DNA of 64,000 nt. Source: Candidatus Hydrothermarchaeales archaeon. GTDB taxonomy: Archaea > Hydrothermarchaeota > Hydrothermarchaeia > Hydrothermarchaeales > JAZGAD01. This document shows, one piece after another, positions 1 to 21,439 of this stretch. A model generated the notes under the pieces. The model worked only from the letters and a program-made list of their open reading frames with translations. It searched no databases and had not been told where the DNA came from. The stretch lies in NCBI GenBank assembly GCA_036444275.1, contig JAZGAD010000048.1, forward strand, positions 92 through 64,091, written 5' to 3'. Each line of letters opens with the position of its first letter. The first letter of the stretch is position 1. Position numbers and translations under genes: made by a program.

Positions 1-3000
1 TACACAGTCCCGTCCACCAGCCACACCAATCTGGACGTTATGCATGAAAGCCGTCATATTCGAAGGCGCAGGCGAAGGCTGGTGGCAGCTCTTACACGTA
101 GAATCATTACCAAGGTAGCTACTGCCCGAGTGATTCTCGTAGTAACCCGGGTTTACGTTATAAAACTCGCCAGTATCATTAGTAATCTCAGGAGGCCTCG
201 GAGAGAACACGTCACCCTTATAGTAGGGGCTCTCGTTGTAATGGCAACTCCTACACCAGATAGAAGTGTCGTTTATGCTGCCATTGACCGTCCCAGGGAT
301 TATGGATACATTACCAAGGCCCGTAGCATTATGCTTCGTATCACCATGACAATACCAACACGAGTCATTAGTCTTCACACCATCACTGTCATTCCAATAA
401 CTACCCCATAGGTTGCCCGCTGACTCGTTGTTGCTATGATTAAAGACCAAGGGAATCTTGGGAGGGGCTGTCCCATTCACTTGGGTTATCGTGGTGCCCT
501 GGTGACAAGAAGCGCAGTTGGCAACACTGCTGTTATCATAAGCGTCAGAGTAAGTGCCGTCCTGCTCTATGTATCTTATCCCGTGGATCTGCTTCTGGGG
601 GGAGGCAGTATAATTAATAAACAATTTTGGCCTACCGTTGCTGCCGTTTCCTGCTATGGTGAAGTTCTGAGATGAGTTGCTCTCGTCCAGCGCCCTTACC
701 TGGAAGGCCGCATAGCTCTGGCCGTTAGTCACTGCTGCTTGGACGATGCTGGTGACTGTGACGTTTACCTCGCCCAGGGAGGAGACATCGAAGGTACCTC
801 CAGTGCTTAGGGTTCCTCCACCATGAACCGTATCATTGTCAGCCCCATCCTGAACATCTTTGGAGCCGTTGACGATGCCTATCTCGCCTCCAGGTCCTGC
901 AACCGTGATGTTGAGGGTTAGGTTGGCCTCGGTTATATCGGCGCCAGCGGGGATGGTTGAGATGTCGAACTTGACGTAGTAGCGGTAGACATCCTTGGTG
1001 GGTGGTGGTGCTGCAGCTGCTGGACCCGGGATGTACTCGAAGTAGACGGTTAGGTTTATAGTTATAGCCTCGTTGCCCGAAACGCCCGAAGCAGTGCACT
1101 TGATGTACTCCAATGCGCCGCCTTCGCCGTCGCCCTCCACGTAATTTGTCACCCCCCCCGTGGAGTTTATCCATTTGTAACCTACGGTATTTATAAGGGT
1201 CCACCCAATAGTCTCATTGTCGGTAGCATCGTCATTGGAGTGGATGCAGGTCAAATTTTCATCTCCATCTATGGTGCCGCTGACAGATTCTACCCCTATC
1301 ATGACTGCATACTTGTACGTGGTGCCTGAGTAATTTACCGTGGCACCATTAGTGTCGTTGATATTTAGATATCCGCTAGCAGGGACAACTAATTGACCGC
1401 CTTGACCAATTATATAACCGTCCGCCACAAGCGTGGATTGCCAAGTCGCCGCCGTAGTAGTGATGTACTGCAGGCCTGTGGTGTTCATCTTCCCAGTGGA
1501 GTCGTTGGCCCAGACCTGCCACTCCACCATTGCACCGACGGTATTGTTGAGGGTCTTGGTTATGTTGGAGTACTTGGCGTCTCCTCCGCCGAAGGGATAT
1601 GTCTCGTTCACCCATGCTCCGGTATTATTGGTCCCGAAGACGTAGGAATCCAGGGTCCCGTCGTCCTGCCAGTAGACGGAGAAGAGGGTCGAGCTATTCG
1701 CTATGGTGTTGTTGGACTGGTTCTGGGAGAACCACGGCGGGTTTACATCTCCCACCGAGGATACAGTCAAACTCTGCAACGTAGTGTTGCTATCGATGTT
1801 GCCTACAGTATCGTTGGCATAGCTGGCATTGAAGTAGAAGGTGCCCTCGACGGAGCTAACGTTCACCTCCACGCCGTAGGTGTCGCCGCTGGCACACGAG
1901 GCAGAAGTGAGCATCGTCAGGTTTGCTAGAGTACCATTGGAATAGGTTATCACAGCCCATACATCGTCTATCTGCCAGTTGTCTGTCACCGTAGCATTGA
2001 GGCACACGTAGGTCCCCGGCGATACGGTTCCGGACTCATTTATGAACTTGGATATCATCACCGGGGGCACTTGGTCAACGACATCGAAAGTCATGATATC
2101 CGTAGCGTTCCAGTTGGATGTGGTTGCGTTGTCCCTGTACCATATCCTCCAACCCACGGTTGTCCCTGGAGCAACTGAGGAATTGCTCCAAGTGAAGTTG
2201 CTCCACGTCCATGTTGTTACATTACCCAGATCCATGGGCGAACCATAACAGCTTGCTCCGCAGGTCTGGTTATTCCATGTCCCACCTGATTCGTTGGTCT
2301 CCAGCTGCGCCTGCCATAGGCCGTTGTCATCGTTGCCCTCTGCGGAGAGGTTGACGGCACCGCTGACATTTATCGTCGAGACATTCTGCCCTTGATTCTG
2401 CCACGTGGGTGGGTTGTCTGCTGATGTCTGAATCGTCACACTCACTGGGTCAGCGAAAGTGCCCTCAGTCCCGCCCGCCTGTAGACTATGAGCTGCCGGT
2501 GTACCACTGGCCACGAATGTGTAATTGATTACCACAATGGCATTTTGTCCAAGAAGCGGTATGTTGACGCTACAATCTGCATTTACACTGCATCCGGTGG
2601 GATCGCACTGGACTATAGTAACTTGACTTGAACCTGTACAATAGAAGTCCGCCACCCCCTCTGAGGTGGTGTTTATCATGAGTCCATCGTCCTCCATCCA
2701 TACATCACATGAAGGATCGCAGGCAGCACCACCGCCGCCCTGACCTTTGAGTCTACTCGAGATGTTGACGTTGTTGTTTTGGTTTACCGGATTAGGGCTT
2801 GCCGTGGGGGCACCATCATCTTGCACAGTTGTGTCGCTCGCAATCATCCACTCCCTAGCTTCCTTCCAGCTGCCTATCTCCAACTTCCCAAGGACGTAGA
2901 ACTCCGGCGAGATGTCAGGCGCGTCGAACTCGTAGGCCAAGATGTATGTCTGACCTTTCTTCAGTTGCTCTCCCCAACTGAGGACCTTCGTATCCCCGAT

Positions 3001-6000
3001 CGTCTTTACCTCCAACCCTTCTTGAGGCGTTATCTCAAACGACGAAGGCACATACTCTCTGATAGGACCGCTGTAATCCTCATTGGCCTTGATCATAAAA
3101 CTCATCGTATAGGGCACGAGTGGATATATCCTCGTTGGACCATCCCTTGCAACGTCGAATGGAATCGATGATTGAACCTCAAACTCATCCACGATGCTCC
3201 TTTCCCCATCCTCCGTTATAGCCGTCAAATCCATCCGATAACTCCCAATGCCCTTAACCTTGTAGTTAGTGTAGTAATCAGGTAGATCGGTCACGCCGTA
3301 GTATGAACACTCCTCCGAAACAACAATACTCCCATCCTCTGTGCTCAGGGTCGTCTCAACGCCCATGGGATCAGTAATCGTCAACACTACTTCGGCATCA
3401 CACACCATTCTACCTTCATCATCAAGAACCGCTATGCCTATGAAAGCCTCCTCAGTGGGCAGGTAGATGCTCTTGTGCGTATTAATCGCCAAGACACCCC
3501 AGGTGAAATCCTGCTCCTTAACAGTCGTAACTCCATCCTGCGTCGTTTCGACCCTCAGTGTGTACAAGCCCGGCCTGAAAGCCCTCCCCTTATCCAGCTT
3601 GACCCTGAATCCCTTTTCAGTTTCCCTGACTTCTTCCTCAAGCTTCAGCTCCTTTCCACTTGGACCTATTAACGTGGCACGAATCTTTCCTCTGCCGGTC
3701 CATAAAGTTCTCAAACTATTCTTACGAAGGAGGATGTCGAACTCTGGCTGTTCATTAGCACCAAAATTATTCCTCTCTGTTATCAAATCTATGGGTACCT
3801 CCCTCGCCCTATCCTTAGGGGTATACACCTCCAGAGTATCTGAGAAGAAGGATGCCCCCTTCAAGATACTGGACAAGAAAGATGACACCTCGTCTCTCAA
3901 GCTCAATCCATCGAATCTTCCCAATTCCTGCCTCTGGGGTAGGGTCTGGTATCCTGCCTCGACCTGAGACGTTCCCCTGCCTGCAGGCGGGTCCCCTACC
4001 CTCGCTGTTGCAGGGGACTCGTTTCCGGTATATGTACCGCTACTGTTCTTTGTGACCCTGTCATAGGTTATGTTGAAATAAGCCGCACCTCCTCCAGAAG
4101 CACTATACACACCCGGATCAGCGTGGCAGGATGCACACTCCAAGGTATTGCTGTTCCACTCCGCTACGCCATGCACCTCCTTTCCACCGTGACAGGCCTT
4201 GCACAGCGACGAATTGTACATACCACCCGTATCCTTGAAGGGAATTGTTAGAGCTGCATCGTGAATCCTGCCCGCATCGTGGCAAGTAGAGTTGGTGCAG
4301 TAAGGTCCGCCGGTATTATTTGTGTGGTTGCCCAGGTTTATGTTCACAGTGTTCTCCATGGCATCTGAAAAGGCGGTTGTGGAGTTCTGATGACAGTATG
4401 CGCAGTTTGTGGATGCAGCATCTAGGTAAAGCCCGTCACCGCTTTCGTGCCTCTTCTTCCCGTAGTGGGAGGCGCTCACGTTGCCGCCGTCATAAGTTGA
4501 ATATATCGTGAAGGAACCAGTATCAGGATCATTGACCGCGCTTGCCAAGAGGATCATCTCGGATTTTCCGTAGTGACAGGAGACGCAGGAAAAATTCACG
4601 TCCCCAGTGTATTTGGAGACATTGACATCCGTGGCATTGTTAAAGTGCTCCGAGACGTTCTTCGCACCGGCATAGTTCCCATAGTTAGCGCCGCCCTCAA
4701 CGTGGCAGTCGTAGCAGGTCCACGGATTCTTGTACTCAGCGGGATGGCCGCTGCCTGGATCATCTCCTGTACCATGGCATGCCCAGCATATCCTATTCCG
4801 CGGGTCAACCCCAGCATCCACCGAGCCGGAATTGAGGTTGTTATGTATCGCGTTTGAAGAATTTATTGCAGAGATGTTAACATGCTTCGGAGCAGAACCG
4901 CTCAAGTCGTGGCACTGCGTGCAGTTCCTCCCTCCTGCAACGCCAATCTGGACGTTATGCATGAACTCGTCCATACTGACCGGGCTGCCTATCGTATGGC
5001 AGTCGTCGCACTTGCTATCATTGTAGTTGCCATCACTGAAGGAGTGGTTATAGTACCTCGGTACGCCTATGTTGTTCCAAGAATCATTAGTTATCTCAGG
5101 CGGATCAGGCTCCAGGGCAGCCTGAGTACTTGTATAGTTACCATCATTTTTATAGTGACAGCTACCGCACCAAGTGCTCGTGGAGAAGCCTGTGTTATTC
5201 ACAGAATCCGAGCCCTGGGCACTCGAAGCATTCCCCAGTGCATTAGTATCGTGCTTCGTGTCACCATGGCAGAAGCTGCAGGCTGAAAGCTGGTTTCCAG
5301 TAGTCCAATAGGGATCGCCAGGACTCCATATCCCGCCCTCGTCAGTTTCGTTGTTGCTGTGGTTCATTGGCGAGGGAATCTTGGGTTGCGTCGTGGTTTT
5401 GCCGTCAGCACCGGTGCCCTGATGACAAGTGGCGCAGTTGACAGCGCTGCCGTTACCACCATACGCGTTGCCAGAGCTCTGCAGGTAGCTCCCATTTATG
5501 CCATGGATGTCCCACCCGCCCTTTGAGGTATTCGTATGGCACTCCGGACAGCTAACACCACCAATAGAACCGCTGTGATTTTGGCGATCAGTATGACAAC
5601 TCGTGCACAAGACGTAGTTAAACTGGGGCTTCGTCAGGTCAGCGTCATGCATCCTGCCCTGGTTGTGGCAAGTGGAGTTGGAGCAAGTAGGACTCCCCGT
5701 CCTATCGGTATGATTATACATGCCCTTGCGATTCGTAACAGCCATGACGTCGGAGAAGGCAGTCGAAGCATTCTGATGACAATAAGTGCAAGAAGTTACA
5801 TTCGTGCTATTCTCCACATACCTGAGGTCGTCCCCTCTCTTCTTGCCGTAGTGGGAGACGTTGGAGAAAGAGCCGTTGCCACTCCCCCCGCTGTCATCTT
5901 CGGTGAAGGTATTCAGCATCTCGGTCTTGTTGTGGCAGGCTATGCAAGAAGAGTTTATGTCCCCTGTGAGCTTAGAAATATTGAGATCGGATGCATCGTT

Positions 6001-8664
6001 GTAGTGCTCGGCAACCGTCGGGGCGTTGCTTACATTGCTGTAGGGTGCAGTGCCGTTGTGACAGTCCCAGCAAAGATAGGGTGGATCCCGGTTCTTGTGC
6101 TGAGCCTCGCCGTTGGTGACGTGGCAGCCCCTGCATGCTCTTTCTATGGACTCGTTCCCAGAGGCCTCGCTGGCGTTGTTTATCCACCTGTGGATGGATT
6201 CGTTGAAGGCCGTGAAGTTCACATCCGGATAGGTCTGTGCATCGCCAGTCCTATGGCACTGAGTGCAGGTCTCACTCCCTCCTTTGAGGTCGAGCTCTTC
6301 CTCGTGGAAGGACTCACTTACCTCATCGTTGTGGTGGCAACCATTGCAGGTCGTCCTTCCCGTGTGGTCTTGCCTCGCAGCTGTACCATTATCGATGGAA
6401 GGACCTACGCCGTAGTCGTATCTAACCGTGGCAGTTCCCCTGTGGCAACCTTCACAATCAGCGGTGTCTGGAGCGGTGTTGGGGAGGCTGGTGTTCTTGC
6501 CGTAGTGAGAGACGTTGGCCAAGAGGTAGTTGGTGAGGGTGTTGAACTCCGTTCCCCCTGTATCCCCCAGGTCGTTCCTGTGGCACCACTCGCAGGTGGC
6601 GTTTCTCTCCGTCTGCGAGTTCCAAGAGGTATTGGTCATGAGGTAATCTGAATCGGTTTCTCGGGCGTCGAGGCTGGAGTCTATGCCCTTGGGGAAGTGC
6701 TCCTTAACCGTTGGAGCAGAAGGATATGTGCCCCAGTTCGGACCCGCATATACTCCTGTCACATTCAAATGGCAGTCGGGGCAAGTCCACGGGGTCTTCT
6801 GCTTATCCGGGTGCCCGCCTTCGACGGGCTCGCCGTCGGTGTCGTGGCATCCCCAGCATATCTTGTTGGCATCATTAGTGGTGCCGGTGGTTGCATTCTG
6901 GTTCAGCAACCTATGATTGGCCCCAGAGGCGTTTACAGAAGAAAAGTTGATACCCGTGTTGGAGGAGGAGCCACCCGATGCGTCATGGCAGTCGGAGCAG
7001 TGCTCGGTGGCCGTAGAGTGCGTGCCATCATTTAGAGTAGCATCCACTTGCATGCTATAGCTGTGAACGGTGAATTTGCTCTGCCCGTCATCGGTATGGC
7101 ATTCTTCGCATGCCAAGGTATCAATAATATAAGTTGTGTTGTCGTGGCACGTCTTGCAGGTGGAGTTCACGGTGCCGCTGGATCCGGTCATATTGAAGGG
7201 GGTCATGTTCGCCTTGCCAGTGACCACCCGATCAGTTGCATGGAAATTCGTATTTATAGTCTTGGTGCCGTTGCTCGAATAGCTCTTTATGGTCTCGTTG
7301 TTGTGGCAGTCGGTACAGCTCAGGGTGGAGTGACTCTCATCTATGTCATAGATTGCGCTGCCGCCATCCTCATGGCAGTTGGTATCGGAAATGCCGCATG
7401 AAGTGGGCTTCGAAGGAGTAGAATGGGCGGTGCTCATATGGCAGTCCTCGCACGTCTTGCTAGAGCTCCCGTGGTATGTGTTAGAAGAGTCCCATCCCGG
7501 TATATCTCCTGTGCCGTTTATTTGAGCCACTCCCCACGTTGAGGTTGAATTGTGGCACTTGTTGCACGCTGGGATGGTAATGTTGTGTGCTTTTTGTCCA
7601 CTGGGTACGTGGCAGTCGCCGCAGTTCGGACTGTTGCCGGCGGATACGTTGTGGTCCACCGCCGCTATGGATTTCGACGAGCTAGAACCATGGCAATAAT
7701 CATCTTCATCAGAACCAGCTCCCTGACTCCCGCAGGTTGTGCTCCATGTGGTTTTGTAAGTAACATTGTGACCGTGACCGTGGCAGTCCTCGCAGTCCTT
7801 GCCAGCATGCAGGCCTGTGGTGTTGCGTGGGGTTATGGTGTGGCATTCATAACATTGCCTCACGACAGGAGAAGTGGCTCCCAAAGCGGTCCCTGCCTGA
7901 TGGCAGTCGTTGCACTGTGCACCAGCAGTTGTTCCATGCTGATTATTTGTGCTGGTGACCGCGGGCATGGCGTCGTGGCAATTGGTGGTGCAACCTATAG
8001 TATCTGTCCTCGGAGTGGAGGTCATTTGGGCAGAATCATCCAAGTCATAGGTTTGTACACCATGGCATCCCCAAGTGGCCGTGAGTGAGTACGCACAGCC
8101 AGGAATTGTCTCGGGATTAAAGTCTATACGGCTTGGATTCCCAAAGGTGTTGTCACCGTCCTCTTGGTCCCCCGCCAGTATCTCTGCCTCGTAGTCGAAT
8201 CCGTACTCCTTCCAGAACCAAAGCCGCCGGGGGCCGATGGGGTTGCTTCCGGAACCAATGGTAATATCAGCGCTTCCTGAATTAAGAACGGCTACCAAAG
8301 GGCTGGTAATATTTCGCCATCCCGGAAATCCTCTCTGATTGGGGTCGTCCCAAGCTGCCATTCTCCACTGGGGCCAGGAGGTGTCCCCGTGCATCCCGTG
8401 GACCCACTCAGGGAAAGAAGCCGCCGGGGCCCTGTCAGCCCCCGGGTGCAGCACATTGCCAAACTGCAAATTGTTAGGGGTGGTGGTGCCGGCTTTATTC
8501 TCCGTGACCAGGTGGCACTTTGATCCCTGGCAGCTGGCGGAGGTGATATTTACCTCCGCGTTAGGTGCGGAAATATCATATCTGCTGAGGGCAAAGGCGC
8601 CCGGGATTAGTAGAACGCTCACTATTAAAACGGTCAGTATCCCGATAGCGCAACGTCCTATCAT
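1..8664 (-). CDS. Giant extracellular multiheme cytochrome c (>2888 aa, 3' end beyond window)
   Basis: Hand translation from ATG at 8664 is open to position 1 with no stop. N-terminal signal peptide MIGRCAIGILTVLIVSVLLIPGAFA. 37 CxxCH motifs, 7 longer-spacer CxnCH motifs and many N-x-S/T sequons. Absent from the ORF track, probably because no stop codon lies in the window. Confidence 0.95.
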   Translation of the reverse strand, partial: MIGRCAIGILTVLIVSVLLIPGAFALSRYDISAPNAEVNITSASCQGSKCHLVTENKAGTTTPNNLQFGNVLHPGADRAPAASFPEWVHGMHGDTSWPQWRMAAWDDPNQRGFPGWRNITSPLVAVLNSGSADITIGSGSNPIGPRRLWFWKEYGFDYEAEILAGDQEDGDNTFGNPSRIDFNPETIPGCAYSLTATWGCHGVQTYDLDDSAQMTSTPRTDTIGCTTNCHDAMPAVTSTNNQHGTTAGAQCNDCHQAGTALGATSPVVRQCYECHTITPRNTTGLHAGKDCEDCHGHGHNVTYKTTWSTTCGSQGAGSDEDDYCHGSSSSKSIAAVDHNVSAGNSPNCGDCHVPSGQKAHNITIPACNKCHNSTSTWGVAQINGTGDIPGWDSSNTYHGSSSKTCEDCHMSTAHSTPSKPTSCGISDTNCHEDGGSAIYDIDESHSTLSCTDCHNNETIKSYSSNGTKTINTNFHATDRVVTGKANMTPFNMTGSSGTVNSTCKTCHDNTTYIIDTLACEECHTDDGQSKFTVHSYSMQVDATLNDGTHSTATEHCSDCHDASGGSSSNTGINFSSVNASGANHRLLNQNATTGTTNDANKICWGCHDTDGEPVEGGHPDKQKTPWTCPDCHLNVTGVYAGPNWGTYPSAPTVKEHFPKGIDSSLDARETDSDYLMTNTSWNSQTERNATCEWCHRNDLGDTGGTEFNTLTNYLLANVSHYGKNTSLPNTAPDTADCEGCHRGTATVRYDYGVGPSIDNGTAARQDHTGRTTCNGCHHNDEVSESFHEEELDLKGGSETCTQCHRTGDAQTYPDVNFTAFNESIHRWINNASEASGNESIERACRGCHVTNGEAQHKNRDPPYLCWDCHNGTAPYSNVSNAPTVAEHYNDASDLNISKLTGDINSSCIACHNKTEMLNTFTEDDSGGSGNGSFSNVSHYGKKRGDDLRYVENSTNVTSCTYCHQNASTAFSDVMAVTNRKGMYNHTDRTGSPTCSNSTCHNQGRMHDADLTKPQFNYVLCTSCHTDRQNHSGSIGGVSCPECHTNTSKGGWDIHGINGSYLQSSGNAYGGNGSAVNCATCHQGTGADGKTTTQPKIPSPMNHSNNETDEGGIWSPGDPYWTTGNQLSACSFCHGDTKHDTNALGNASSAQGSDSVNNTGFSTSTWCGSCHYKNDGNYTSTQAALEPDPPEITNDSWNNIGVPRYYNHSFSDGNYNDSKCDDCHTIGSPVSMDEFMHNVQIGVAGGRNCTQCHDLSGSAPKHVNISAINSSNAIHNNLNSGSVDAGVDPRNRICWACHGTGDDPGSGHPAEYKNPWTCYDCHVEGGANYGNYAGAKNVSEHFNNATDVNVSKYTGDVNFSCVSCHYGKSEMILLASAVNDPDTGSFTIYSTYDGGNVSASHYGKKRHESGDGLYLDAASTNCAYCHQNSTTAFSDAMENTVNINLGNHTNNTGGPYCTNSTCHDAGRIHDAALTIPFKDTGGMYNSSLCKACHGGKEVHGVAEWNSNTLECASCHADPGVYSASGGGAAYFNITYDRVTKNSSGTYTGNESPATARVGDPPAGRGTSQVEAGYQTLPQRQELGRFDGLSLRDEVSSFLSSILKGASFFSDTLEVYTPKDRAREVPIDLITERNNFGANEQPEFDILLRKNSLRTLWTGRGKIRATLIGPSGKELKLEEEVRETEKGFRVKLDKGRAFRPGLYTLRVETTQDGVTTVKEQDFTWGVLAINTHKSIYLPTEEAFIGIAVLDDEGRMVCDAEVVLTITDPMGVETTLSTEDGSIVVSEECSYYGVTDLPDYYTNYKVKGIGSYRMDLTAITEDGERSIVDEFEVQSSIPFDVARDGPTRIYPLVPYTMSFMIKANEDYSGPIREYVPSSFEITPQEGLEVKTIGDTKVLSWGEQLKKGQTYILAYEFDAPDISPEFYVLGKLEIGSWKEAREWMIASDTTVQDDGAPTASPNPVNQNNNVNISSRLKGQGGGGAACDPSCDVWMEDDGLMINTTSEGVADFYCTGSSQVTIVQCDPTGCSVNADCSVNIPLLGQNAIVVINYTFVASGTPAAHSLQAGGTEGTFADPVSVTIQTSADNPPTWQNQGQNVSTINVSGAVNLSAEGNDDNGLWQAQLETNESGGTWNNQTCGASCYGSPMDLGNVTTWTWSNFTWSNSSVAPGTTVGWRIWYRDNATTSNWNATDIMTFDVVDQVPPVMISKFINESGTVSPGTYVCLNATVTDNWQIDDVWAVITYSNGTLANLTMLTSASCASGDTYGVEVNVSSVEGTFYFNASYANDTVGNIDSNTTLQSLTVSSVGDVNPPWFSQNQSNNTIANSSTLFSVYWQDDGTLDSYVFGTNNTGAWVNETYPFGGGDAKYSNITKTLNNTVGAMVEWQVWANDSTGKMNTTGLQYITTTAATWQSTLVADGYIIGQGGQLVVPASGYLNINDTNGATVNYSGTTYKYAVMIGVESVSGTIDGDENLTCIHSNDDATDNETIGWTLINTVGYKWINSTGGVTNYVEGDGEGGALEYIKCTASGVSGNEAITINLTVYFEYIPGPAAAAPPPTKDVYRYYVKFDISTIPAGADITEANLTLNITVAGPGGEIGIVNGSKDVQDGADNDTVHGGGTLSTGGTFDVSSLGEVNVTVTSIVQAAVTNGQSYAAFQVRALDESNSSQNFTIAGNGSNGRPKLFINYTASPQKQIHGIRYIEQDGTYSDAYDNSSVANCASCHQGTTITQVNGTAPPKIPLVFNHSNNESAGNLWGSYWNDSDGVKTNDSCWYCHGDTKHNATGLGNVSIIPGTVNGSINDTSIWCRSCHYNESPYYKGDVFSPRPPEITNDTGEFYNVNPGYYENHSGSSYLGNDSTCKSCHQPSPAPSNMTAFMHNVQIGVAGGRDCV

Positions 8665-10197
8665 TTATCCCCACCAACAAATCAATACAGAAATGGCCTT
8701 TCCCATCGGTCTTGCCACCCGCCGCCTAAGGATGAAAATCACCAAGGCGAACATGGCTAAAAATTTCAATACACTAGAACCTGAACCACTGAAAGAGGAT
8801 GGGAAGTCTCCTGAGATAGACACGCTAGCGTTTCCCCTGCCGTCTACCCAATACTGATGCCCATCTCCTGCCTTGACAGCGATGTAGTGGTCCCCGGGAT
8901 TTGGAGAAGTGAAGTATTCGCCCCAATTGGCCCCGTTCCAATTCATATCAGCCTCGTAATAGTATCCAGGGCCACTGACATACATAGTAACGGTGGGTTC
9001 GTTGGTCGTAGAACCCGTTACGGTTACCCCTGCATTGTCTTTGACAGTAGCATTCACTGCGATTGGACTGTTGGCCTGGCTTCCGGTGGTACTAATTGAA
9101 GTAACATTTAACCGGCCCCTTACATACAAAGCGAAATCTGACTGTAAGTTAGTAGTAGTGACAGTGACGTTCCATTCGCCCGGATCATCACCTGTGCTCC
9201 AATCGTAGGTATAGCTCGAAACACCTTTAATAGGCGAACTCATGCTAGCGCCATTAACAATTGTTTGTCCTGCACCATCCTTTATTGTCACCGTAGGAGT
9301 GATAGTACTGGAAGTGTACCACCAACCGCAGTCCTCCTCCCAGTAATCCTCTCCTCTCCCAAAAATCTGAATCTTTTTTCTGCCATAGTCATAGTATTCC
9401 CTATCCGCCGAACCGGTGAGCCTCTCCGTATACCCCTTATATACCTGTTGCCAACCATAGCCTCCGGGACCAGTGCTCTCCACGGTCGTCGGGGCGGAGC
9501 CGGTGGTGTACGTGATATCTACACTTACATAGTCGAGCTTATACCACTTCTTTGATCCGCCGGAAGAGGGGTTATTAAAATAGACTCCCATGTTTGCAAC
9601 ATCAGTTAGTTGATCGCAAGTTGCGGAAACGTCAAACTGAATGAGTCCTACTGAAGGGTTATAAGACGTTGAAGTATATTTAGAGGAGCATTGGACTTCA
9701 ACTTCCATGCAGTTGGTTGAACAGGGCTCTACTTCGCCAACGTCAATATTTACCACAACCGAAGTCGTAGTGCCGTAGCCAGCGTCCAAGGCATCCATAA
9801 ACAATTGAAGCTTTTCGCCGCCGCCATCTTGTGTAAACTCGTTAGCGCCGTCGTCGTCGTTAATATCTGCAAGAGTGCCGCAAGCAGTTAAAGAGCAGAG
9901 ATGTAACTTACTCACCTGCAGAGTTACATCTGTAGCCTGAACTACACCGACACTCAAAAAGAGGATTGCCAAGATGAACACTATCCTGACATACCTCAAC
10001 GTATTTCCAACTGCTACCGCCCTTCTGGAATGTAACATAAGCTCTCCAAAATATCTTAAGATATTTACACACTTTGTAAATTTGGGAAATATCTTATATG
10101 CCTGGATATACGCAACGAATCTTCCCAATATAGAGACGACAGCATGGATTAAACTAGCTATAATCATCACAGCATTTAGAGCATTCCTCTCCTTCAT
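8665..10197 (-). CDS. Secreted/surface protein with Ig-like beta-rich domains and C-terminal membrane anchor
   Basis: 510-aa ORF with signal-like VRIVFILAILFLSVGVVQA (true start may be downstream of 10197), S/T/G/Y-rich body, and a C-terminal TM helix followed by RRR. Its stop abuts the cytochrome ATG. Confidence 0.8.
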   Translation of the reverse strand: MKERNALNAVMIIASLIHAVVSILGRFVAYIQAYKIFPKFTKCVNILRYFGELMLHSRRAVAVGNTLRYVRIVFILAILFLSVGVVQATDVTLQVSKLHLCSLTACGTLADINDDDGANEFTQDGGGEKLQLFMDALDAGYGTTTSVVVNIDVGEVEPCSTNCMEVEVQCSSKYTSTSYNPSVGLIQFDVSATCDQLTDVANMGVYFNNPSSGGSKKWYKLDYVSVDITYTTGSAPTTVESTGPGGYGWQQVYKGYTERLTGSADREYYDYGRKKIQIFGRGEDYWEEDCGWWYTSSTITPTVTIKDGAGQTIVNGASMSSPIKGVSSYTYDWSTGDDPGEWNVTVTTTNLQSDFALYVRGRLNVTSISTTGSQANSPIAVNATVKDNAGVTVTGSTTNEPTVTMYVSGPGYYYEADMNWNGANWGEYFTSPNPGDHYIAVKAGDGHQYWVDGRGNASVSISGDFPSSFSGSGSSVLKFLAMFALVIFILRRRVARPMGKAISVLICWWG

Positions 10198-10275
10198 CTG
10201 ACGGCCTCCTCTTCAAGGACTGTATGTAGACCCATTCTTTCTCCACCTGTTAGTTTCAAACTTTTCAAACCTGGA

Positions 10276-10611
10276 TTAGACATTTATCTCACCTGACCCG
10301 ATCTCTCTTTTAGCCAGCTCAGCGCCTTCATAGACATGCTGCCACCCATACCCACCAGGACCTCTAGATTCCACAGTAGGAGCAGCATATACTCCCTCCC
10401 CAAAACTAAACAGACTGAGTAACATAGCCAACGCTAGCACTATCTTTAATGTTCCTCGAATCCTTACTTGCCGGTTAAGCTTTCCTTCCCCCTTTCCTTC
10501 CCCCTTTCTTTCACCTACTTCTACATCCTTCTCTATAAGTATAATTCCTAGAGGTACTAAAGGCTTATTAGAACTACTTATTTCACGTATTTCTTTAAGC
10601 TTATAGCCCAT
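10276..10611 (-). pseudogene. Truncated paralog of the 8665-10197 surface protein
   Basis: A signal peptide followed by APTVESRGPGGYGWQHVYEG matches APTTVESTGPGGYGWQQVYKG in the neighbour. The ORF ends about 15 codons later. Confidence 0.6.
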
Positions 10612-10969
10612 TTTTACCTACCTTTGCCACACTACCCTTTCGTTCTTCCAGTCCTGCCATACGATCCAATTTACCATTGCAAGACCCTATCATCCTAGCA
10701 CACTATTACGAACTTATTTTCCTCCTTTTAATCTGTAAATATTTGGCCGGGAGAGTTCCTAAGGGATTCTTTGTCATTTGAATTTAGGTATACTAAAATT
10801 CCCTTCCACAGATTGCGCCTTGCCATCTGCTCCACGCAGCCCTACTTACTCCTTCCTTCTATGCCACCCCAGAAGTCTTTGTAGTCTTCTCTTATCTTTT
10901 GGAAGTACCTCCTATTTAAATTTGCGTGACATATGTGTCGATTTTAAGGACGCAGACGTAAACGCTAAA

Positions 10970-11110
10970 CTACACGAGCTCTGGGCGTCCACACGCACTT
11001 CCACGAGTTTCACCCTTAGGGATGCCTTCAATAGCGGCCTGTGAAGTGGTTGTTAAGAAGGCATAGACGAAGACGTTGGTATCAATCAAAAAGGTCTGGA
11101 TACCTCTTGC
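10970..11110 (-). pseudogene. PIN-domain toxin remnant
   Basis: The frame reads TFLIDTNVFVYAF (11057-11095), a typical PIN N-terminal motif, but has no start codon and stops early. Confidence 0.4.
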
Positions 11111-11198
11111 TTGCTGAATTAAATGATGATAGAAGAGTGGGCATGGTTAGCGTGAGCAGGAATTTAAACGTTAAACGCTTGAAGTAGATAATGTCTCA

Positions 11199-12512
11199 TC
11201 AAAAAACTATGCTGCAGGAAATAAAAACTGGGATAGGTATAGCCTTTACATCGTCAAAGTCTTTCCATTGATTTTTGCTTAAGAGGATTTTATTTTTAAG
11301 ATCAATTTTCGGAAAGTCTTTTTTATCAACCTTGCCGTACTTTACCTCTATTCCGGTATTATTGACTATAAAATCAACTTCTTTCCTGCCGTGAAAGAAG
11401 AAAGTTTCTCTATTTCTCTTTAAATACTCCCCTACTATCCCTTCTACCAGGCTGGGCTTCTTTTCAGCTGAAACATCGCTGGCGCCGAATGCATATCTGC
11501 TGAAAACCCTGAAAAGAAAGGGGTCAATAAAATAAACCTTTCTTTCAGCCCTATAGACAGGCAAATTCCTGCTTAAATCAAACTTAAAATAGTTTCTCAG
11601 CAAGAAGCATTTTTCCAAAAACTCCAAGTACTCCCTTACAGTCACATGGGAGCCAATCTCCATCTCTTTTGCCACAGAATTCAAAGAAAACCTGCTGCCG
11701 TAGTTTTTTATAACTCCCTGAACAACCGATTTGAATATTCTTTCGCTCCTGTCCAGCTTGCTGATATCTCCCAAAATCCAGTTGACATAGGTTTCATATG
11801 TTTCCTCTTTTATACCCCCGTTTTCCATCAGCTGAAAGGCGCTTAAAGGAAAACCTCCACAGACAATATATCTCTCAAAGAGCTCTTGCAGCTCATCTAT
11901 GAAAGGGAGAAGCTTGAAGGATTTATCAAAAACTTCCTCTATTCTGGCCTTTGCATCTTTCAGAGTATTTTTCAACTCCCCGCTCCCGAACAAAAGGCAG
12001 AATTCCCTAAAATTTAAGGGGAGGAATTCCCTGAAGTTTATCTCCCTTCCCGGAAATCTTTCCTTTTTTAAGGTAGCCGAAGTAGAGCCGGTGATATACA
12101 AATTTTTCATGCCAGAGTCAAGTAAAAATTTTACTGCGGCTTCCCAGTCCCTGACAAAGGTTATTTCATCTAAAAATAAGAATTTCTCCCCTCTACCAAG
12201 CCTATCAAATAGCCCCACAAGCTCGAATATATCTTCTTTTTTCGAGAGCGGCTCACAAGAGAAATAAAGAATATTGCTTGAAGCCGTATTTTTAAGTAAA
12301 TCAAGGATCATAAGCTTTAGAAAAGTGGTTTTGCCAACTTGCCTGGGCCCGATTATTAAGAAATTGCCTTTTTCAAATCTCTGTATAAGCTTGTGCTTTC
12401 TTGAAAGCGCCTGCAAAACTTTTTCATCTTTTTTAATCTCCTCTCTATTCTTCCACCAGGAGTTCTGCTTTGACAAGAGCTCAACATCCATGGCTTGATT
12501 ATCCACTGTCAA
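11199..12512 (-). CDS. AAA+ ATPase (AAA_14 / DUF4143 family)
   Basis: Walker A GPRQVGKTT, Walker B FLDEI, ITGS, GGFP, KVYFIDP and a C-terminal EVDF...IEVK nuclease-like motif. Confidence 0.9.
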   Translation of the reverse strand: MTVDNQAMDVELLSKQNSWWKNREEIKKDEKVLQALSRKHKLIQRFEKGNFLIIGPRQVGKTTFLKLMILDLLKNTASSNILYFSCEPLSKKEDIFELVGLFDRLGRGEKFLFLDEITFVRDWEAAVKFLLDSGMKNLYITGSTSATLKKERFPGREINFREFLPLNFREFCLLFGSGELKNTLKDAKARIEEVFDKSFKLLPFIDELQELFERYIVCGGFPLSAFQLMENGGIKEETYETYVNWILGDISKLDRSERIFKSVVQGVIKNYGSRFSLNSVAKEMEIGSHVTVREYLEFLEKCFLLRNYFKFDLSRNLPVYRAERKVYFIDPFLFRVFSRYAFGASDVSAEKKPSLVEGIVGEYLKRNRETFFFHGRKEVDFIVNNTGIEVKYGKVDKKDFPKIDLKNKILLSKNQWKDFDDVKAIPIPVFISCSIVF

Positions 12513-12560
12513 AATATATAAATTTTTTGATAGTCACTATCAAATTTGTATATACTTTGG

Positions 12561-12789
12561 TCAGAAGAGTGTCATAGTTTCAAGGTCATGTGCGATTAGT
12601 TTGCCAAACCAATAACTTCCAATGGCCAAGCCAGACATGAACCAGGTCAAAATCGTGCTCACAGCATAGATAGATATGCCAAAGATAGGTAAGCTGCCTG
12701 CTCCAAACTACCTCGTAGATGAGGGCTGAGACATTCGAGAGTGTGAACCCGAAGAGAAGCACCTTGTCTTTATATTTCATGAGGATCAT
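12561..12789 (-). pseudogene. Frameshifted N-terminal fragment of a fused MFS/spermidine synthase-like membrane protein
   Basis: SALIYEVVWSRQLT continues in a shifted frame as IFGISIYAVSTILTWFMSGLAIGSYWFGKL, the family consensus, then stops. Confidence 0.75.
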
Positions 12790-12983
12790 CTCAAAGGGAT
12801 TCTATTACGAGTAGAGTAGTAATTGATGGCCCCGGTATCAGTTTGACTGCTCTTTATTACATTAAAGATAACCATTTGGAGGTATGGCTTTTAGGGACTT
12901 ATAAGGATAATGCATAAACAAAAACAAAATATCCTGCAATAGCATTTAATGATAATATTTAATATGAGATTAGAGCACGCTAA

Positions 12984-13301
12984 TTGGGTAGGGTTCCTTC
13001 AAGAAAAGGGGGGATAACCAGCTCTGGAGCAACCGCACTTGGAAATGAGAACCTAGGTGATGCTGAAGAATTCATACTACTCGCCAACCGCGAACTCGAC
13101 GCTGTAGAAGCCGAGTATTCCCTGGTAAGGGCAAAGTACGATGCAGCAAGGGACAACATACTCACGTATATCGTTGCGAGAGCAGTACGGGCTAAGCATA
13201 GGCTGAGCGACATAGAGTTGGAGAGACAAGTGCTGGACGATTTGATGAAGAGGACGCAGAAGAAGTACTACAGGGAGACGGCGATGAATAGGCATAGCTG
13301 A
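12984..13301 (+). CDS. Hypothetical coiled-coil protein (start uncertain)
   Basis: 105-aa ORF with E/A/R/L-rich helical composition. Confidence 0.45.
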   Translation: MGRVPSRKGGITSSGATALGNENLGDAEEFILLANRELDAVEAEYSLVRAKYDAARDNILTYIVARAVRAKHRLSDIELERQVLDDLMKRTQKKYYRETAMNRHS

Positions 13302-13328
13302 GGCAAGGATGACAGGCTACCGAATCGA

Positions 13329-13444
13329 TCTAGGACACTAGAGATAGACGAGCTGGAACCACTGCTAAAGGCAAAACAAGAGAAGTTTAGATCAATGCAA
13401 ATACTCGGAGCACTGCGTGCCTCCACTTTATCTATCTAGCTTAT
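13329..13444 (+). repeat. Direct repeat copy 1 (~112 bp) left of the PIN TA module
   Basis: gacactagagatagacgagctg...gcactgcgtgcctccact...ctagcttat recurs at 14508-14619 with a few mismatches. Confidence 0.95.
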
Positions 13445-13623
13445 TTGAATTTTCTGATTGTTGATTGTTGAGTAACTCAACAATTGCTAAAAATTTGTTA
13501 AAAATAGGCCTATAAAAGATTTCAGTGTTTACAAAATAAAAAATAACATTAAAATTAAAAGAGAGTATAATAGTCCCAAAAAAAAACTACTCTCTTAATT
13601 GGGCGAGCGAAGCGAGTCTTATA

Positions 13624-14051
13624 TTATATCTCCTTCAAAAATTCATCAGGACTTTTAAAAGTAACTCTGTCCTTGATTTTCATCCCACTAAGGCGCCTAT
13701 TTGCTGTCACAAAAACATCACACATAGCATGGATACAAGCCGCAATGTGAGGAATATCATCGGCATCGGCTACAAGGGGCTTAAACTCTTCAAGGTTTAG
13801 TTCTTTGATTTTAACAATTTCAAGTTGAGAAATCGACATGATCATCTGCCTCATTTTTCCAGCTGTGTCTTTCCCATATCGCCGTTTGATATTTAGTATA
13901 ATTTCTTCGGTAGAATAGTCAGATATCACGCAGGTGAAATCCCCTTTTAACGCATTTATAATAATCTGTGAAGAATAATAATCTGTGAAGAACTACTTTC
14001 AGGATGATCTAATGCCAATAGAAAGACATTCGTATCAAGGTATGCCTTCAT
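13624..14051 (-). pseudogene. PIN-domain (VapC-like) toxin disrupted by a 17-bp tandem duplication
   Basis: Starts MKAYLDTNVFLLAL at 14051 (ATGA overlap with the antitoxin). TAATAATCTGTGAAGAA occurs twice at 13959-13992. Removing one copy gives a 136-aa PIN protein ending DADDIPHIAAC...FVTANRR. Confidence 0.85.
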
Positions 14052-14263
14052 TTAAAGTGCTTCCTGAAAATCTCTTTCCGTGTCTCTTTTAGAGATGCCA
14101 GTATCTCTTTCTCAGAAAGCATGGCCCCACCTGACGCCTTGGCTGCCCTCTTGACTTCTCCCAGCAGGTCCTCGGGCGTAATCTTTCCCCTCTCAAGTAG
14201 GCCTTTAAGAATAGTCGGCTCTTCTAGGGTTATCGGAGACGATTTCTTTGCTACAGTTTCCAT
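14048..14263 (-). CDS. Putative antitoxin of the PIN toxin
   Basis: 71-aa ORF (METVAKK...) upstream of and translationally coupled to the PIN gene. Confidence 0.65.
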   Translation of the reverse strand: METVAKKSSPITLEEPTILKGLLERGKITPEDLLGEVKRAAKASGGAMLSEKEILASLKETRKEIFRKHFK

Positions 14264-14507
14264 ATAAATCACATTTATCTCTGTATAGTAACGTTTATAA
14301 ATTTCGCGGCTTAGAACATAAGCGCTTCCAGCGCAACTATGTACAATTTCCTGTGCTATGAAATTCGTACATTTCGTACATGCCCGGACGGATGCTTTCC
14401 CTTCTCGGGGTGCGGATGCAACTTGGAACAACGTGAGGCAAAGTTAAAAGGAAAAAAGGGGCGAATGATCAAATATCATTAACTTTTGAGACATTGCCAG
14501 CTACCGC

Positions 14508-14619
14508 TCTAAGACACTAGAGATAGACGAGCTGAAACCAGTGCTAAAGGCAAAACAAGAGAAGTTTAGATCAATGCAAATACTCGGAGCACTGCGTGCC
14601 TCCACTCTATCTAGCTTAT
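14508..14619 (+). repeat. Direct repeat copy 2 right of the PIN TA module
   Basis: Near-identical to 13329-13444. Confidence 0.95.
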
Positions 14620-14713
14620 GAACATTTTTGATGTTTGCTCTAGAGAAATGAAACCTTAAATACTGCAGGTTTACAGAGCCACCCCTCTACCCATTTACCA
14701 TCCATGAAATGGG

Positions 14714-15247
14714 TTATTTAATGGCCTTAGCGATCCTTTCTGGTAGGGAATCTAATTTTGAATCTATACTCCCCAAAGAATCTATTATCACTCCAGTATT
14801 AGCCTCAACCCGCTCAGTATTAGCCTCAATCCCCTTCAATCGTTCATTACCTCGCTCAGTATTAGCCTCAACCCGCTCAGTATTAGCCTCAATCCCCTTC
14901 AATCGTTCATTACCTATATCTAGCTTTCTCGAAATCTCACCGAGTTCCTCTACCTCCAATCTCGCAAAGCTAGGTGGGAGTGGAAATTCAATTGAGATCT
15001 CTTTCTTTTCCAAACTCTCAACGAAAATACCGGATGGCAACTCTTCTTTGATCTGAATATCTTCTAAGAACCTGTTCAAAAAGTCCTCATGACCCTCGCA
15101 TATGATTTTAACAGAACCGTCAACATCATTCCATGGGAAACCCTTGAGATTGAAAAGCTCCGCTGTGCCTTCCACCCGCTTTCTATACCCTGCATCTTGG
15201 ACCTGCCCTCTGATGACGACATAATATCGTTTAACCCTGTCTCCCAT
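14714..15247 (-). CDS. Acylphosphatase-domain protein with coiled-coil tail
   Basis: IRGQVQDAGYRK...LKG..WNDVDGSVKIICEG matches acylphosphatase motifs. The tail has a 63-bp tandem duplication. Confidence 0.8.
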   Translation of the reverse strand: MGDRVKRYYVVIRGQVQDAGYRKRVEGTAELFNLKGFPWNDVDGSVKIICEGHEDFLNRFLEDIQIKEELPSGIFVESLEKKEISIEFPLPPSFARLEVEELGEISRKLDIGNERLKGIEANTERVEANTERGNERLKGIEANTERVEANTGVIIDSLGSIDSKLDSLPERIAKAIK

Positions 15248-15701
15248 CGATTCGCACCGCTTTACGATTGGCTATTATCACATATAAATATAGCGAGGAA
15301 GCAGTACCAATGCGCATGCTGGCCGCTGTTCCAAAGAATGGGACACTATATGGAGGGAAATACTAGACTACCATCTGCATTATACCTCAAGCCCCCCTTT
15401 TCAACAATCAAATACTCAATTCCTCCTTACCAGAATCAAGCTGAGACACCAACTCATCCCTTTCCATTGAGACAAGGGGCAAAGTGAACTAAGCTAAGCT
15501 ATTCCTCGACAACCTCTTCGCCCTTGTCGTAGTTGCTGCAACTGTTTCTGGAGTAAGTGTATTTGGATACTATAGGCTTCTAACTGCTAGGAGGAGGAAA
15601 AATTCCCTTCTCGTCTTGGTATCAAACTTTGTGTCCACGATAAATGGTTTAATAGCTCCATTATGCAGTGAATGTATCAAGAAGCTGAGGCTAGCTTGAT
15701 C

Positions 15702-16223
15702 CTATAGCTTCTCAAGTTCTTCTTTAATCACGCTGTAGTCTTTTGGGCTTATCCTCCAGCCAGTTTTGACCATGCTTTCAAAGGCGTCTATCACCTCTTT
15801 CTTGCTTATCATTTTCTTTTTGTAGAGAACTATGAATAGATATACGCTGCCCCTCGCCGGGATATTCAGTATCCTGCTTATTTTTCTTGCTGTGTATTCA
15901 TCTACTATCGCCGTAGCATTTTTCTCCTTCGCAAGGGCTAGGACTTCTGATTCTCCCTCATGCAGCGGCTTCAGCTCATTGGATGCAGCACTTTTTACTA
16001 GATCAAGAAAGTCTTTATCTTCTACGTCCGCAATAACTATCGTGCCGTTCTCTATGAGCTTTTCTATCACGTAAGAATCTGGAGCGCCTTTTTCCTTTCC
16101 ATGAACAACAACAACATTATAAACTTCTCTTGGAATCGCAAGATCTCCAAGCTTCTCAAAGATATTGCTATAGCCAGCCCTGACGATGTGTATCAGCGGG
16201 CTGGCGTTTAAAACAAACTTCAT
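15702..16223 (-). CDS. PIN-domain protein (DUF3368 family toxin)
   Basis: FVLNASPLI, LHEGESEVLALA and IVDEYTARK motifs. Confidence 0.85.
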   Translation of the reverse strand: MKFVLNASPLIHIVRAGYSNIFEKLGDLAIPREVYNVVVVHGKEKGAPDSYVIEKLIENGTIVIADVEDKDFLDLVKSAASNELKPLHEGESEVLALAKEKNATAIVDEYTARKISRILNIPARGSVYLFIVLYKKKMISKKEVIDAFESMVKTGWRISPKDYSVIKEELEKL

Positions 16224-18823: not shown

Positions 18824-19204
18824 ATGACTATTTACGAATATTACATACCAGTAGCCATATTCATAATTGTTGGATTGCTTTTCCCGATTGCTGCGATGGT
18901 GTCCTCCTGGCTTTTTAGAGTCAAAAATCCCTATCCTGAGAAGCTCACGACCTTTGAATGCGGTGAGATACCAATTGGCAATGCACAGATCCAATTCGAC
19001 ATACAGTATTACATGTTCGCAATCCTCTTCGTAGTGTTTGACATAGAGACTGTCTTCCTCTATCCATGGGCGCTGGTATTCCCAGAACTCGGGATGCTAG
19101 CTGTGCTCGAGATGATCCTTTTCATCGCTATCTTAGCACTCGGCTTGATATACGCCTGGAAAAAGGGAGTCCTAGAATGGATGCCCCTTACCTGGAGGGA
19201 TTAA
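18824..19204 (+). CDS. nuoA: Complex I-like subunit A (FpoA/NuoA)
   Basis: KLTTFECGE, YYMFAILFVVFDIETVFLYPWA, YAWKKGVLEW. Confidence 0.95.
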   Translation: MTIYEYYIPVAIFIIVGLLFPIAAMVSSWLFRVKNPYPEKLTTFECGEIPIGNAQIQFDIQYYMFAILFVVFDIETVFLYPWALVFPELGMLAVLEMILFIAILALGLIYAWKKGVLEWMPLTWRD

Positions 19205-19732
19205 ATGAAGGTTCCAGTGGCCTTTGCAAAAAAAGACGACCTCTTGAAGATCGCAGAAGACGAAGATAAGAGGTCCGCTGTCGTAGAAAGCATGAAAAAC
19301 GGCAGGGACTACCTTATCAGGTGGGGGCGTAAATCATCATTATGGGGGTATGCCTTCGGCCTCGCCTGCTGTTCAGTAGAGATGATATGTTTTGGAGCAG
19401 CGAGGTGGGACGCTGACAGGTTCGGCGTGATCTTCAGAGGCTCCCCTAGGCAGTCAGACCTCATGATCGTGGGGGGCACTGTAACCAAGATGATGGCACC
19501 CCGCATAAGGCGTTTGTACCATCAGATGGCAGAGCCCAGGTGGGTAATCGCCACTGGAGAATGCGCCATAACAGGCGGCCCGTTTTGGGATTCCTACAGC
19601 ATCGTAATGGGCACAGATAAAATAATCCCAGTAGACGTTGTTATCCCGGGTTGCCCAGCTAATCCAGATGCGCTTTTCGACGGCATAATAAAATTGCAGA
19701 AGAAGATAATGGAAGGGGACGCTGGAAGGTGA
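19205..19732 (+). CDS. nuoB: Complex I-like subunit B (FpoB/NuoB)
   Basis: [28 protein letters not shown]. Confidence 0.95.
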
Positions 19733-21405: not shown

Positions 21406-21439
21406 GTAGGAGATAGGCGAGGCGAGGTTAGGAGGAAAA

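Follow-up and report, generated by a model that had tools for sequence, protein, structure and literature searches.

The N-terminal part of a giant multiheme cytochrome gene from a Hydrothermarchaeota-type archaeon, with a heme-free cassette and an adjoining partner gene

The cytochrome gene and its reading frame

The stretch of DNA analysed here (the window, 64,000 nucleotides) corresponds to positions 92-64091 of contig C48 (JAZGAD010000048.1), one of 61 contigs of a 1.49 Mb genome that is rated 81% complete. One end of the window is occupied by the N-terminal part of a gene for a giant multiheme cytochrome, directly preceded by a smaller partner gene (Table 1). According to the open reading frame (ORF) listing and its translation the cytochrome is encoded by a single stop-free frame of 2888 amino acids (aa), which starts with ATG and is open at its 3' side. 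A preliminary description, made from the letters of the window, had drawn attention to an uninterrupted minus-strand frame of this size and the translation bears it out. At the window edge the frame breaks off with '...DCV'. Following it leftward, as that description had proposed, added 30 aa up to the first bases of the contig; the resulting frame of 2918 aa completes the motif begun at the edge (CVSCH, the 38th CxxCH) and is still open.

Table 1. Features of the cytochrome locus (positions in the window; aa numbers refer to the cytochrome)
Feature	Position	Strand	Basis
Giant multiheme cytochrome gene, N-terminal 2888 codons	1..8664	(-)	ORF listing, translation, Pfam
Probable signal peptide, aa 1-27 (MIGRC...PGAFA/LS)	8584..8664	(-)	Hydrophobic segment; cleavage site inferred
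Heme block 1, aa 225-1514: 33 CxxCH, 1 CX3CH, 2 CX4CH, ~35 aa/heme	4123..7992	(-)	Motifs, piecewise Pfam
Heme-free insert, aa 1515-2690, 1176 aa, no CX2-4CH	595..4122	(-)	Motif scan; flanks in uninterrupted relatives
Three tandem beta-sandwich (MG/Ig-like) domains, aa 1659-1946	2827..3690	(-)	50-60% identity to modules of giant surface proteins (DPANN, CPR), AlphaFold2 model
Second shared surface module, aa 2081-2402, no Pfam match	1459..2424	(-)	59% identity to JdFR-18 insert
DNRLRE-like beta-sandwich domain, aa 2556-2683	616..999	(-)	33.9 bits, just below cut-off 34
Heme block 2 start, aa 2691-2888: 4 CxxCH and a fifth begun at the edge	1..594	(-)	Motifs; repeat resumes in phase
Partner gene, 510-aa ORF, true start probably internal	8665..10197	(-)	Abuts cytochrome gene
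Probable truncated remnant of a second partner copy, 111-aa ORF	10276..10611	(-)	Partner's N-terminal part

A motif script returned 33 CxxCH motifs from aa 251 (nucleotide (nt) 7914) to aa 1510 (nt 4137-4123) and four more from aa 2717 (nt 516) to aa 2857 (nt 96-82), exactly the figures first reported. The 37 motifs of the window protein compare with a mean of 0.13 and a maximum of 2 in 2000 shuffles of the protein. There are in addition one CX3CH (aa 225) and three CX4CH sites (aa 45, 994 and 1456). In an alignment of four proteins C225, C994/C999/H1000 and C1456/C1461/H1462 were invariant between the cytochrome and three homologues; because the residues at aa 225, 994 and 1456 are conserved in this way, approximately 42 likely heme sites can be counted on the contig. 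The abundance of N-glycosylation sequons that had been noted is also real, since N-x-S/T occurs 127 times as against 45.9 ± 6.0 (maximum 72) in 2000 shuffles. The density, 4.39 sequons per 100 aa, just exceeds the 99th percentile of the genome (4.3; median 0.29), a baseline taken from 692 six-frame ORFs of at least 250 aa, some of which are surely spurious. Other giant surface ORFs of the genome have 5.3-5.9 sequons per 100 aa, and two STT3 matches above cut-off represent homologues of STT3/AglB. The sole strongly hydrophobic stretch of the cytochrome, aa 1-31, reads MIGRCAIGILTVLIVSVLLIPGAFA followed by LS, contains an A-F-A motif and would fit a signal peptide. A GGTGGGG stretch lies 4 nt 5' of the ATG.

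Pfam placed the protein in several cytochrome families: MtrC/MtrF domain II/IV (PF22113, 127 bits, cut-off 30, in seven stretches), Cytochrome_C7 (PF14522, 105 bits, cut-off 24.8), c3_2 (PF14537, 48 bits, cut-off 25) and class III cytochrome c (PF02085, 32.6 bits, cut-off 22.9). When the protein was searched as 19 overlapping pieces of 300 aa, cytochrome families were found at aa 1-1530 and aa 2550-2888, and MG2 only at aa ~1630-1710, where the whole protein had given a weak match (aa 1627-1712). The five pieces lying wholly within aa 1801-2700 had no Pfam match at E ≤ 0.01. A profile query against solved structures found NrfH as the best match (E 0.0024). The frame is almost certainly a genuine giant c-type cytochrome gene; heme attachment and the cellular location of the product are predictions made from its sequence.

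The preliminary description had raised the possibility that the organism lacks genes for cytochrome c maturation (Ccm), but these are present in the genome. Four matches to PF01578 and one to CcmE (PF03100) were all above the Pfam cut-offs. A ccm cluster has the order ccmA, ccmB, ccmC, ccmE, and three CcmF/NrfE-type paralogues lie on contigs C16, C53 and C58, two of them preceded by thioredoxin-like genes. Together with the ccmABCE cluster on C37, these paralogues recall the duplication of CcmF described for anaerobic methanotrophic archaea (ANME; PMC9012536). A scan of ORFs in the window detected no Ccm gene adjoining the cytochrome gene, the downstream side of which is unassembled.

It might be asked whether the gene works at all, in other words whether the frame is an assembly chimera of repeats or part of a gene that is broken past the contig end. 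The contig does end inside a repeat region, the remainder of the gene was not found in the bin by tblastn, and same-strain reads were not found for the frame. In P0005, the protein of a close metagenome relative, the last ~60 residues after '...AIHAQLNN' are rich in Pro and Thr, whereas its near twin P0003 continues with heme motifs. The P0005 tail looks like a frameshift or an assembly error, and it falls in the repeat region where the contig of the window ends. The frame itself, however, runs for 8754 bases without a stop. Its internal repeats are only ~43% identical at the protein level and the sole DNA self-match extends over 44 nt at 84%, which is too little to cause a mis-join. Moreover, the order of heme block, insert and heme block recurs in three proteins of other assemblies (P0003, P0005 and the protein of Candidatus (Ca.) Hydrothermarchaeum profundi JdFR-18), and fragments from sequencing run X1 (DNA), which are 90-95% alike and cover 18 of 30 bins, contain no insertions or deletions relative to the frame. 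We therefore regard a non-working gene as very improbable. No RNA data set is listed for the locus.

That many more hemes lie past the contig end, as the preliminary description had anticipated, is a well-founded expectation because the complete relative in JdFR-18 has 3924 aa and 67 CxxCH. The missing C-terminus was sought on contig C2, which opens with a cytochrome fragment of 388 aa and eight CxxCH (C2:3-1683, open at its start) followed by a protein with two CxxCH. This candidate was rejected, being only ~27% like the giant. At 31%, the fragment is instead like a tetraheme gene of JdFR-18 (502 aa) whose place is two genes downstream of the giant, and because of this likeness C2 may belong to the cytochrome locus.

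Repeat architecture, cassette and partner protein

The position of the heme-free insert can be understood from the spacing of the hemes on either side of it. From aa 1020 the spacings are 19/38/52/37/53/29 and from aa 1488 they are 22/(1207)/52/35/53/30. Since the series recurs, the gap of 1207 residues occupies the place of a 38-residue loop one repeat earlier. In a self-comparison aa 1053-1279 matched aa 2693-2918 at 44%, and aa 1231-1498 matched aa 782-1030 at 41%. The segments flanking the gap (aa 1400-1514 and 2691-2917) were mapped onto three gap-free relatives with a period of ~465-480 aa; they lay 4-10 aa apart in 13 of the 13 repeats where both matched (four or five in each protein). 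The flank mapping and the self-matches indicate a tandem array of ~470-aa, roughly ten-heme super-repeats and, as the flanks adjoin in uninterrupted relatives, the 1176-aa cassette sits in a single inter-heme loop. The heme chain would thus probably stay continuous across the cassette. A gap is found at the corresponding place in P0003, P0005 and the JdFR-18 protein.

The first module of the cassette (aa ~1625-1950) has counterparts of 45-60% identity in very large proteins without hemes, whose named carriers include Woesearchaeota, Altiarchaeota, Patescibacteria and Parcubacteria, that is DPANN archaea and bacteria of the candidate phyla radiation (CPR). It was found in 2101 representative clusters at E ≤ 0.001, of which 1395 were at E ≤ 1e-30. 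An AlphaFold2 model of the module built on a 33-row alignment (mean predicted local distance difference test score (pLDDT) 78.9, predicted template modelling score 0.75) contains three tandem beta-sandwiches. The best structural matches are macroglobulin (MG) domains of alpha-2-macroglobulin and complement (Z 11.2, root mean square deviation (rmsd) 2.1 over 96 residues), and domains of filamin, invasin and pilins were matched as well. Because beta-sandwich folds of this kind are common, the matches show no function beyond 'surface stalk or adhesin-like'. The second module (aa 2081-2402) recurs in DPANN-type proteins, and a Protein Atlas search gave leads only (MG2, 'biofilm-associated', CARDB/DUF11). 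The insert of the JdFR-18 protein lacks the first module and has only aa 2081-2402 and 2536-2716 in common with ours, so the content of the cassette varies.

A copy of the three-beta-sandwich module in the genome's own 11,078-aa ORF on contig C14 is only 38% identical. The module is therefore much closer to its counterparts in other lineages (45-60%) than to that in its own genome, and domain-level transfer between co-occurring archaea may be the reason. The tree of the insert module was a quick one, built from slices with flanking insertions, and is a lead at most. Recent horizontal transfer as judged from base composition was dismissed: the G+C content at third codon positions is 0.61, compared with 0.53 ± 0.066 for the genome, and equals that of the other giant surface genes. 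It could be imagined that the module marks an interface of contact between Hydrothermarchaeota and DPANN archaea. We also considered an 'adhesin-wire', in which a module akin to those of episymbiotic DPANN archaea and CPR bacteria had been placed in one inter-heme loop. A single protein would then both attach to a particular surface, either a mineral face or another cell's envelope, and make electrical contact with it, but this seems rather unlikely. The 11,078-aa ORF itself (C14:25352-58586) has 655 N-x-S/T sequons (5.9 per 100 aa), and the three-beta-sandwich module also occurs in a 10,846-aa frame of a relative from the same order.

The stop codon of the partner gene (TAA, 8665-8667) directly abuts the ATG of the cytochrome (8662-8664) in the same frame. 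The C-terminal 290 residues of the partner define a family of 19 clusters (its own included), mostly of 290-360 aa and without annotated function. Its members begin with a signal-like segment, share a conserved 'ESxGPGGYGWQQ...DCGWWY' region and have, at the C-terminus, a hydrophobic helix that carries a basic tail. The partner was modelled (pLDDT 81.9) as an MG2-like sandwich (Z 11.6, rmsd 2.2 over 96 residues), a second sandwich like those of immunoglobulin (Ig) and fibronectin type III domains, and a helix. The partner lies immediately upstream of a giant cytochrome at five loci in four genomes (both JdFR-18-type loci, G032, G026 and our own) and at contig edges in two further genomes; in total seven of 41 genomes match, our own included. 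P0003 and P0005 are fusions of partner and cytochrome, and the second cytochrome locus of JdFR-18 has both within one open frame of 2042 aa. The fused forms continue from the helix of the partner directly into the signal-like segment of the cytochrome. From these features the partner may be a membrane-anchored subunit which holds the N-terminal end of the wire. Further upstream, the ORF at 10276-10611 ends after the partner signal and first conserved stretch, 'ESRGPGGYGWQ', and probably represents the remnant of a duplicated partner copy.

No description of a loop-out cassette or of a conserved partner was found in the literature searched, the supplementary cytochrome tables of PMC6759336 and PMC6775978 being outside its scope. 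As far as this search shows, two features are apparently new to print: the place where the cassette loops out, and the conservation of a partner that in some relatives is fused.

Host, occurrence and proposed electron path

When named genomes were scanned with the cytochrome, JdFR-18 was by far the best match, followed by Ca. Methanoperedens at 28-35% identity. Among 40 related genomes, one of the same order with a 3924-aa frame contained segments 60-73% identical. Two housekeeping proteins of the window were compared as well: ArgJ is 59% identical to its counterpart in the JdFR-18 genome and 48% to that of a Methanoperedens genome, and for a fused Fpo C/D-type subunit the values are 49-50% and 43-45%, respectively. 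No McrA was found in the genome, which as stated is 81% complete. Taken together with the relatives and with the ArgJ and Fpo identities, this suggests that the host is a Hydrothermarchaeota-type archaeon of the same order as JdFR-18 but of a different family. A host among ANME or Methanosarcinales, to which the Fpo-, Mrp- and Hdr-like neighbours had seemed to point, was rejected because no McrA was found and the nearest relatives are elsewhere. The preliminary description had pointed to very large multiheme cytochromes of ANME, Methanoperedens and Ferroglobus/Geoglobus. The heme blocks are homologous to those of ANME and Methanoperedens giants; the host is not a member of ANME, Methanoperedens or Archaeoglobi.

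A query with part of heme block 1 (aa 600-1514) found 102 proteins of 1604-5107 aa. Those with names came mostly from Ca. Methanoperedens, the ANME-2 cluster, Methanosarcinaceae, Methanocellales and Ca. Argoarchaeum. By hand count, 25 of the 102 carry the S-layer (surface layer) family PF07752, 17 (our own included) carry MG2 and six carry beta-helix families. Relatives in genomes of the same order have 3318 aa with 69 CxxCH, 1737 aa with 40 and 1590 aa with 34. A Methanoperedens record has more than 3582 aa with 76 CxxCH, and metagenome contigs encode proteins of 3394 aa (71 CxxCH) and 3464 aa (66 CxxCH). The JdFR-18 counterpart (MTMF02000009.1) possesses six CX4CH in addition to its 67 CxxCH (73 sites), and its motif series breaks at aa 1338-2313; it has one N-terminal hydrophobic segment and none at the C-terminus. 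The other genome of the window's own family did not match the cytochrome, and since the occurrence among the related genomes is patchy (10 of 41), the cytochrome is accessory rather than core.

The JdFR-18 giant is adjoined by a 2250-aa heme-free protein (L009:21700-28452) ending in a domain of ~120 aa. This domain recurs at many ORF ends in the genome of the window (contigs C6, C11, C15, C19, C23, C32 and C43) and may be a common cell-envelope anchor of the group; it was not found in the present part of the giant cytochrome.

Several genes that could feed such a cytochrome are present. An Fpo-like operon lies at 18824-30680 of the window, 10 kb from the cytochrome gene, and a five-CxxCH cytochrome of 524 aa is encoded at 57046-58620 (-). 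Elsewhere in the genome, an operon on contig C47 consists of an 8-heme cytochrome, a small ORF and a cytochrome b561; contig C40 encodes a NapC/NirT-like 6-heme protein, and C33 encodes small cytochromes together with a signal-peptidase-like gene. Some further genes of the window deserve mention. Within the Fpo-like operon, a 558-aa ORF at 22571-24247 (+) combines 4Fe-4S ferredoxin domains (FpoI-like) with N- and C-terminal FrhB/FdhB domains (FpoF-like) and looks like an input module fused to the Fpo-like membrane complex. Close to the operon, at 35687-45239 (-), is an Mrp/Mnh-type antiporter-like cluster comprising four large Proton_antipo_M subunits, MnhB, MnhE and 4L-like subunits. A small c-type heme-binding protein is encoded at 58939-59262 (+); together with the five-CxxCH cytochrome it neighbours an HdrA/MvhD-like iron-sulfur protein at 54448-56667. 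The stretch 10000-16000 has a G+C content of 0.39-0.43, compared with 0.50-0.55 over the cytochrome gene, and contains an AAA_14/DUF4143 ATPase (11199-12512) and a DUF3368 protein (15702-16223).

The best explanation for the locus is that the contig carries roughly two thirds, from the N-terminus on, of a giant multiheme cytochrome that is secreted and heavily N-glycosylated. By analogy with related proteins it would serve as a glycosylated extracellular electron conduit, leading from a quinol module via small cytochromes and the giant chain to a mineral or a partner cell; we assign this reading a probability of about 0.7. In the proposed path the membrane quinone pool would be fed by the Fpo-like complex encoded 10 kb away. 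A cytochrome b/octaheme module or a NapC/NirT-type module would hand electrons from the pool to small cytochromes, and the giant heme chain would conduct them through the pseudo-periplasm and the cell envelope, beyond which an insoluble acceptor or a partner cell would receive them. The partner protein would probably keep the N-terminal end of the cytochrome at the membrane, and the cassette would probably fix it in the envelope or to a surface. Outward transfer is the published reading, also made by analogy, for the group (PMC6759336) and for the Methanoperedens and ANME-2 homologues (PMC9012536). The preliminary description had likewise proposed a role in extracellular electron transfer; the identity as a giant multiheme cytochrome is sound, while the role itself is assigned by analogy.

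A number of results weigh against this reading. The gene is incomplete, its C-terminus lying past the contig end, and when the C-terminal 1425 aa of the JdFR-18 protein were compared with the genome by tblastn only C48 itself was matched. Only 0.07 of sampled words were shared with run X1, which yielded nothing closer than the 90-95% alike fragments. In the part present, neither a known envelope-spanning element (Pfam) nor the S-layer family DUF1608 (PF07752) was found, the latter at E ≤ 0.1 with the whole protein and E ≤ 0.01 on the 19 pieces, and the complete JdFR-18 relative has no C-terminal anchor or membrane helix. No solved structure was related by sequence at E ≤ 0.01 with the protein as query. 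Among NCBIfam Ccm matches only ccmA exceeded the curated cut-off. Finally, two (G020 and G024) of the ten matching genomes, our own being one of the ten, match only in the heme-free part.

The same protein might also work inward. The electrons would then come from a syntrophic donor, a cathode-like surface or reduced minerals such as metal sulfides and Fe(II) phases, and would enter the quinone pool to be used in carbon fixation. Multiheme chains are reversible in principle, and the quinone-linked modules of the genome work in either direction. The habitat would suit uptake: the group has been described from sulfide deposits and from vents rich in iron and sulfur, its predicted way of life is that of a CO/H2-using lithoautotroph (PMC6759336, PMC11537232), and dissolved iron at the JdFR site was mostly ferrous (Kato et al., PMC6759336). 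The sequence gives no direction, however, and both for the group and for the nearest homologues the published reading is outward; moreover, no dedicated uptake partner was identified. We consider inward transfer possible but unlikely. Another function that might be read from the heme count is that of a surface electron store (a capacitor or redox buffer) holding charge when acceptors are scarce. If the hemes are ~1 nm apart, as in solved cytochrome wires, 42 sites on the contig or 73 in the complete relative would be far more than are needed to span an archaeal envelope. But the regular tandem super-repeat and the MtrC-like matches fit a linear chain, and because storage and conduction are mutually compatible, the store is a weak rival to the conduit; as the principal function it is distinctly improbable.

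The Hydrothermarchaeota, which inhabit vents and subseafloor crust, are uncultured and their respiration is unsettled. That a second family of the order has a giant cytochrome, full maturation and quinone-linked modules makes it more likely that electron exchange with solids or with partner cells takes place in some members. The looped-out cassette and the putative membrane-anchored partner provide handles for structural and localisation work on electron transfer through the envelope of archaea, which have no outer membrane and in this case no recognisable S-layer domain.

Comparison with known systems

The unnamed first module of the cassette, with its weak MG2 match, is shared at 45-60% identity with giant surface proteins of DPANN archaea and CPR bacteria. 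Those proteins have no hemes, and their copies of the module are embedded in long series of Ig-like repeats rather than in a cytochrome. With MtrC and MtrF of the Shewanella MtrCAB system the window protein has the Pfam matches in common, and both have been proposed as the terminal outward-facing part of an electron path. It is, however, ~5-6 times longer and has 4-7 times more hemes, and the solved structures show no detectable sequence kinship. An archaeal host would also have no outer membrane or MtrB-type barrel, which is argued from the host, no search for MtrA or MtrB having been run.

The multiheme cytochromes (MHC) of ANME types A, B and C have 20-86 motifs, modified CX(n)CH motifs and a heme-free accessory domain, and have been proposed to pass electrons through the envelope (Chadwick et al. 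2022, PMC9012536). ANME-2 entries were among the 102 matches to the heme block, and CX(n)CH variants and a duplicated CcmF are further points of likeness. The accessory part is different, being here a beta-sandwich cassette inside one inter-heme loop. Neither a peptidase M6-like nor a pectin-lyase-like domain (PF13229, PF05048) was found by Pfam in the part present, whether searched whole or in pieces. Types A and B are marked by the S-layer domain and a C-terminal transmembrane helix, type B by a CcmF paralogue beside the cytochrome gene and type C by the pectin-lyase-like domain. The window protein would work in the manner of the ANME S-layer cytochromes, but since these domains are not found in the part present, it does not belong to ANME MHC type A, B or C.

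The nearest named homologues of the heme repeats are the giants of Ca. Methanoperedens (28-38% identity), which share the ~470-aa super-repeat and are similar in size and heme count; a 113-heme protein of Methanoperedens is the largest reported (Leu et al. 2020, PMC7327174). Some Ca. Methanoperedens and ANME-2 homologues are among the 17 of 102 which by hand count carry the MG2 Pfam domain. Ca. Methanoperedens belongs to another phylum, however, and no methane metabolism was detected in the host of the window; most relatives are uninterrupted arrays or S-layer carriers (25 of 102, hand count).

Closest by far is the phylum's own published example. Kato et al. (2019, PMC6759336) reported cytochromes with 'ten or more (up to 67) motifs' in JdFR genomes and suggested that they serve to reduce iron or to pass electrons to a syntrophic partner. 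Many c-type cytochromes are also mentioned by Carr et al. (2019, PMC6775978), without counts. The figure of 67 means that this kind of giant cytochrome is already in print for the phylum, and the window gene leaves the known picture of giant archaeal cytochromes unchanged. Compared with the 67-motif cytochrome of JdFR-18, the window protein is 47% identical in the best segment (query 7-2917) and 55.5% over 962 aa. Both have the plan of heme block, insert and heme block, with the insert at the same point (gap at aa 1510-2717 here and 1338-2313 there), an N-terminal hydrophobic segment only, and the partner gene directly upstream. They differ in that the JdFR-18 insert is without the aa 1625-1950 module, the window gene is incomplete, and the hosts are of different families in the same order. 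The collinear similarity, the shared insert site and the partner identify the window protein as a member of the Hydrothermarchaeota giant cytochrome type.

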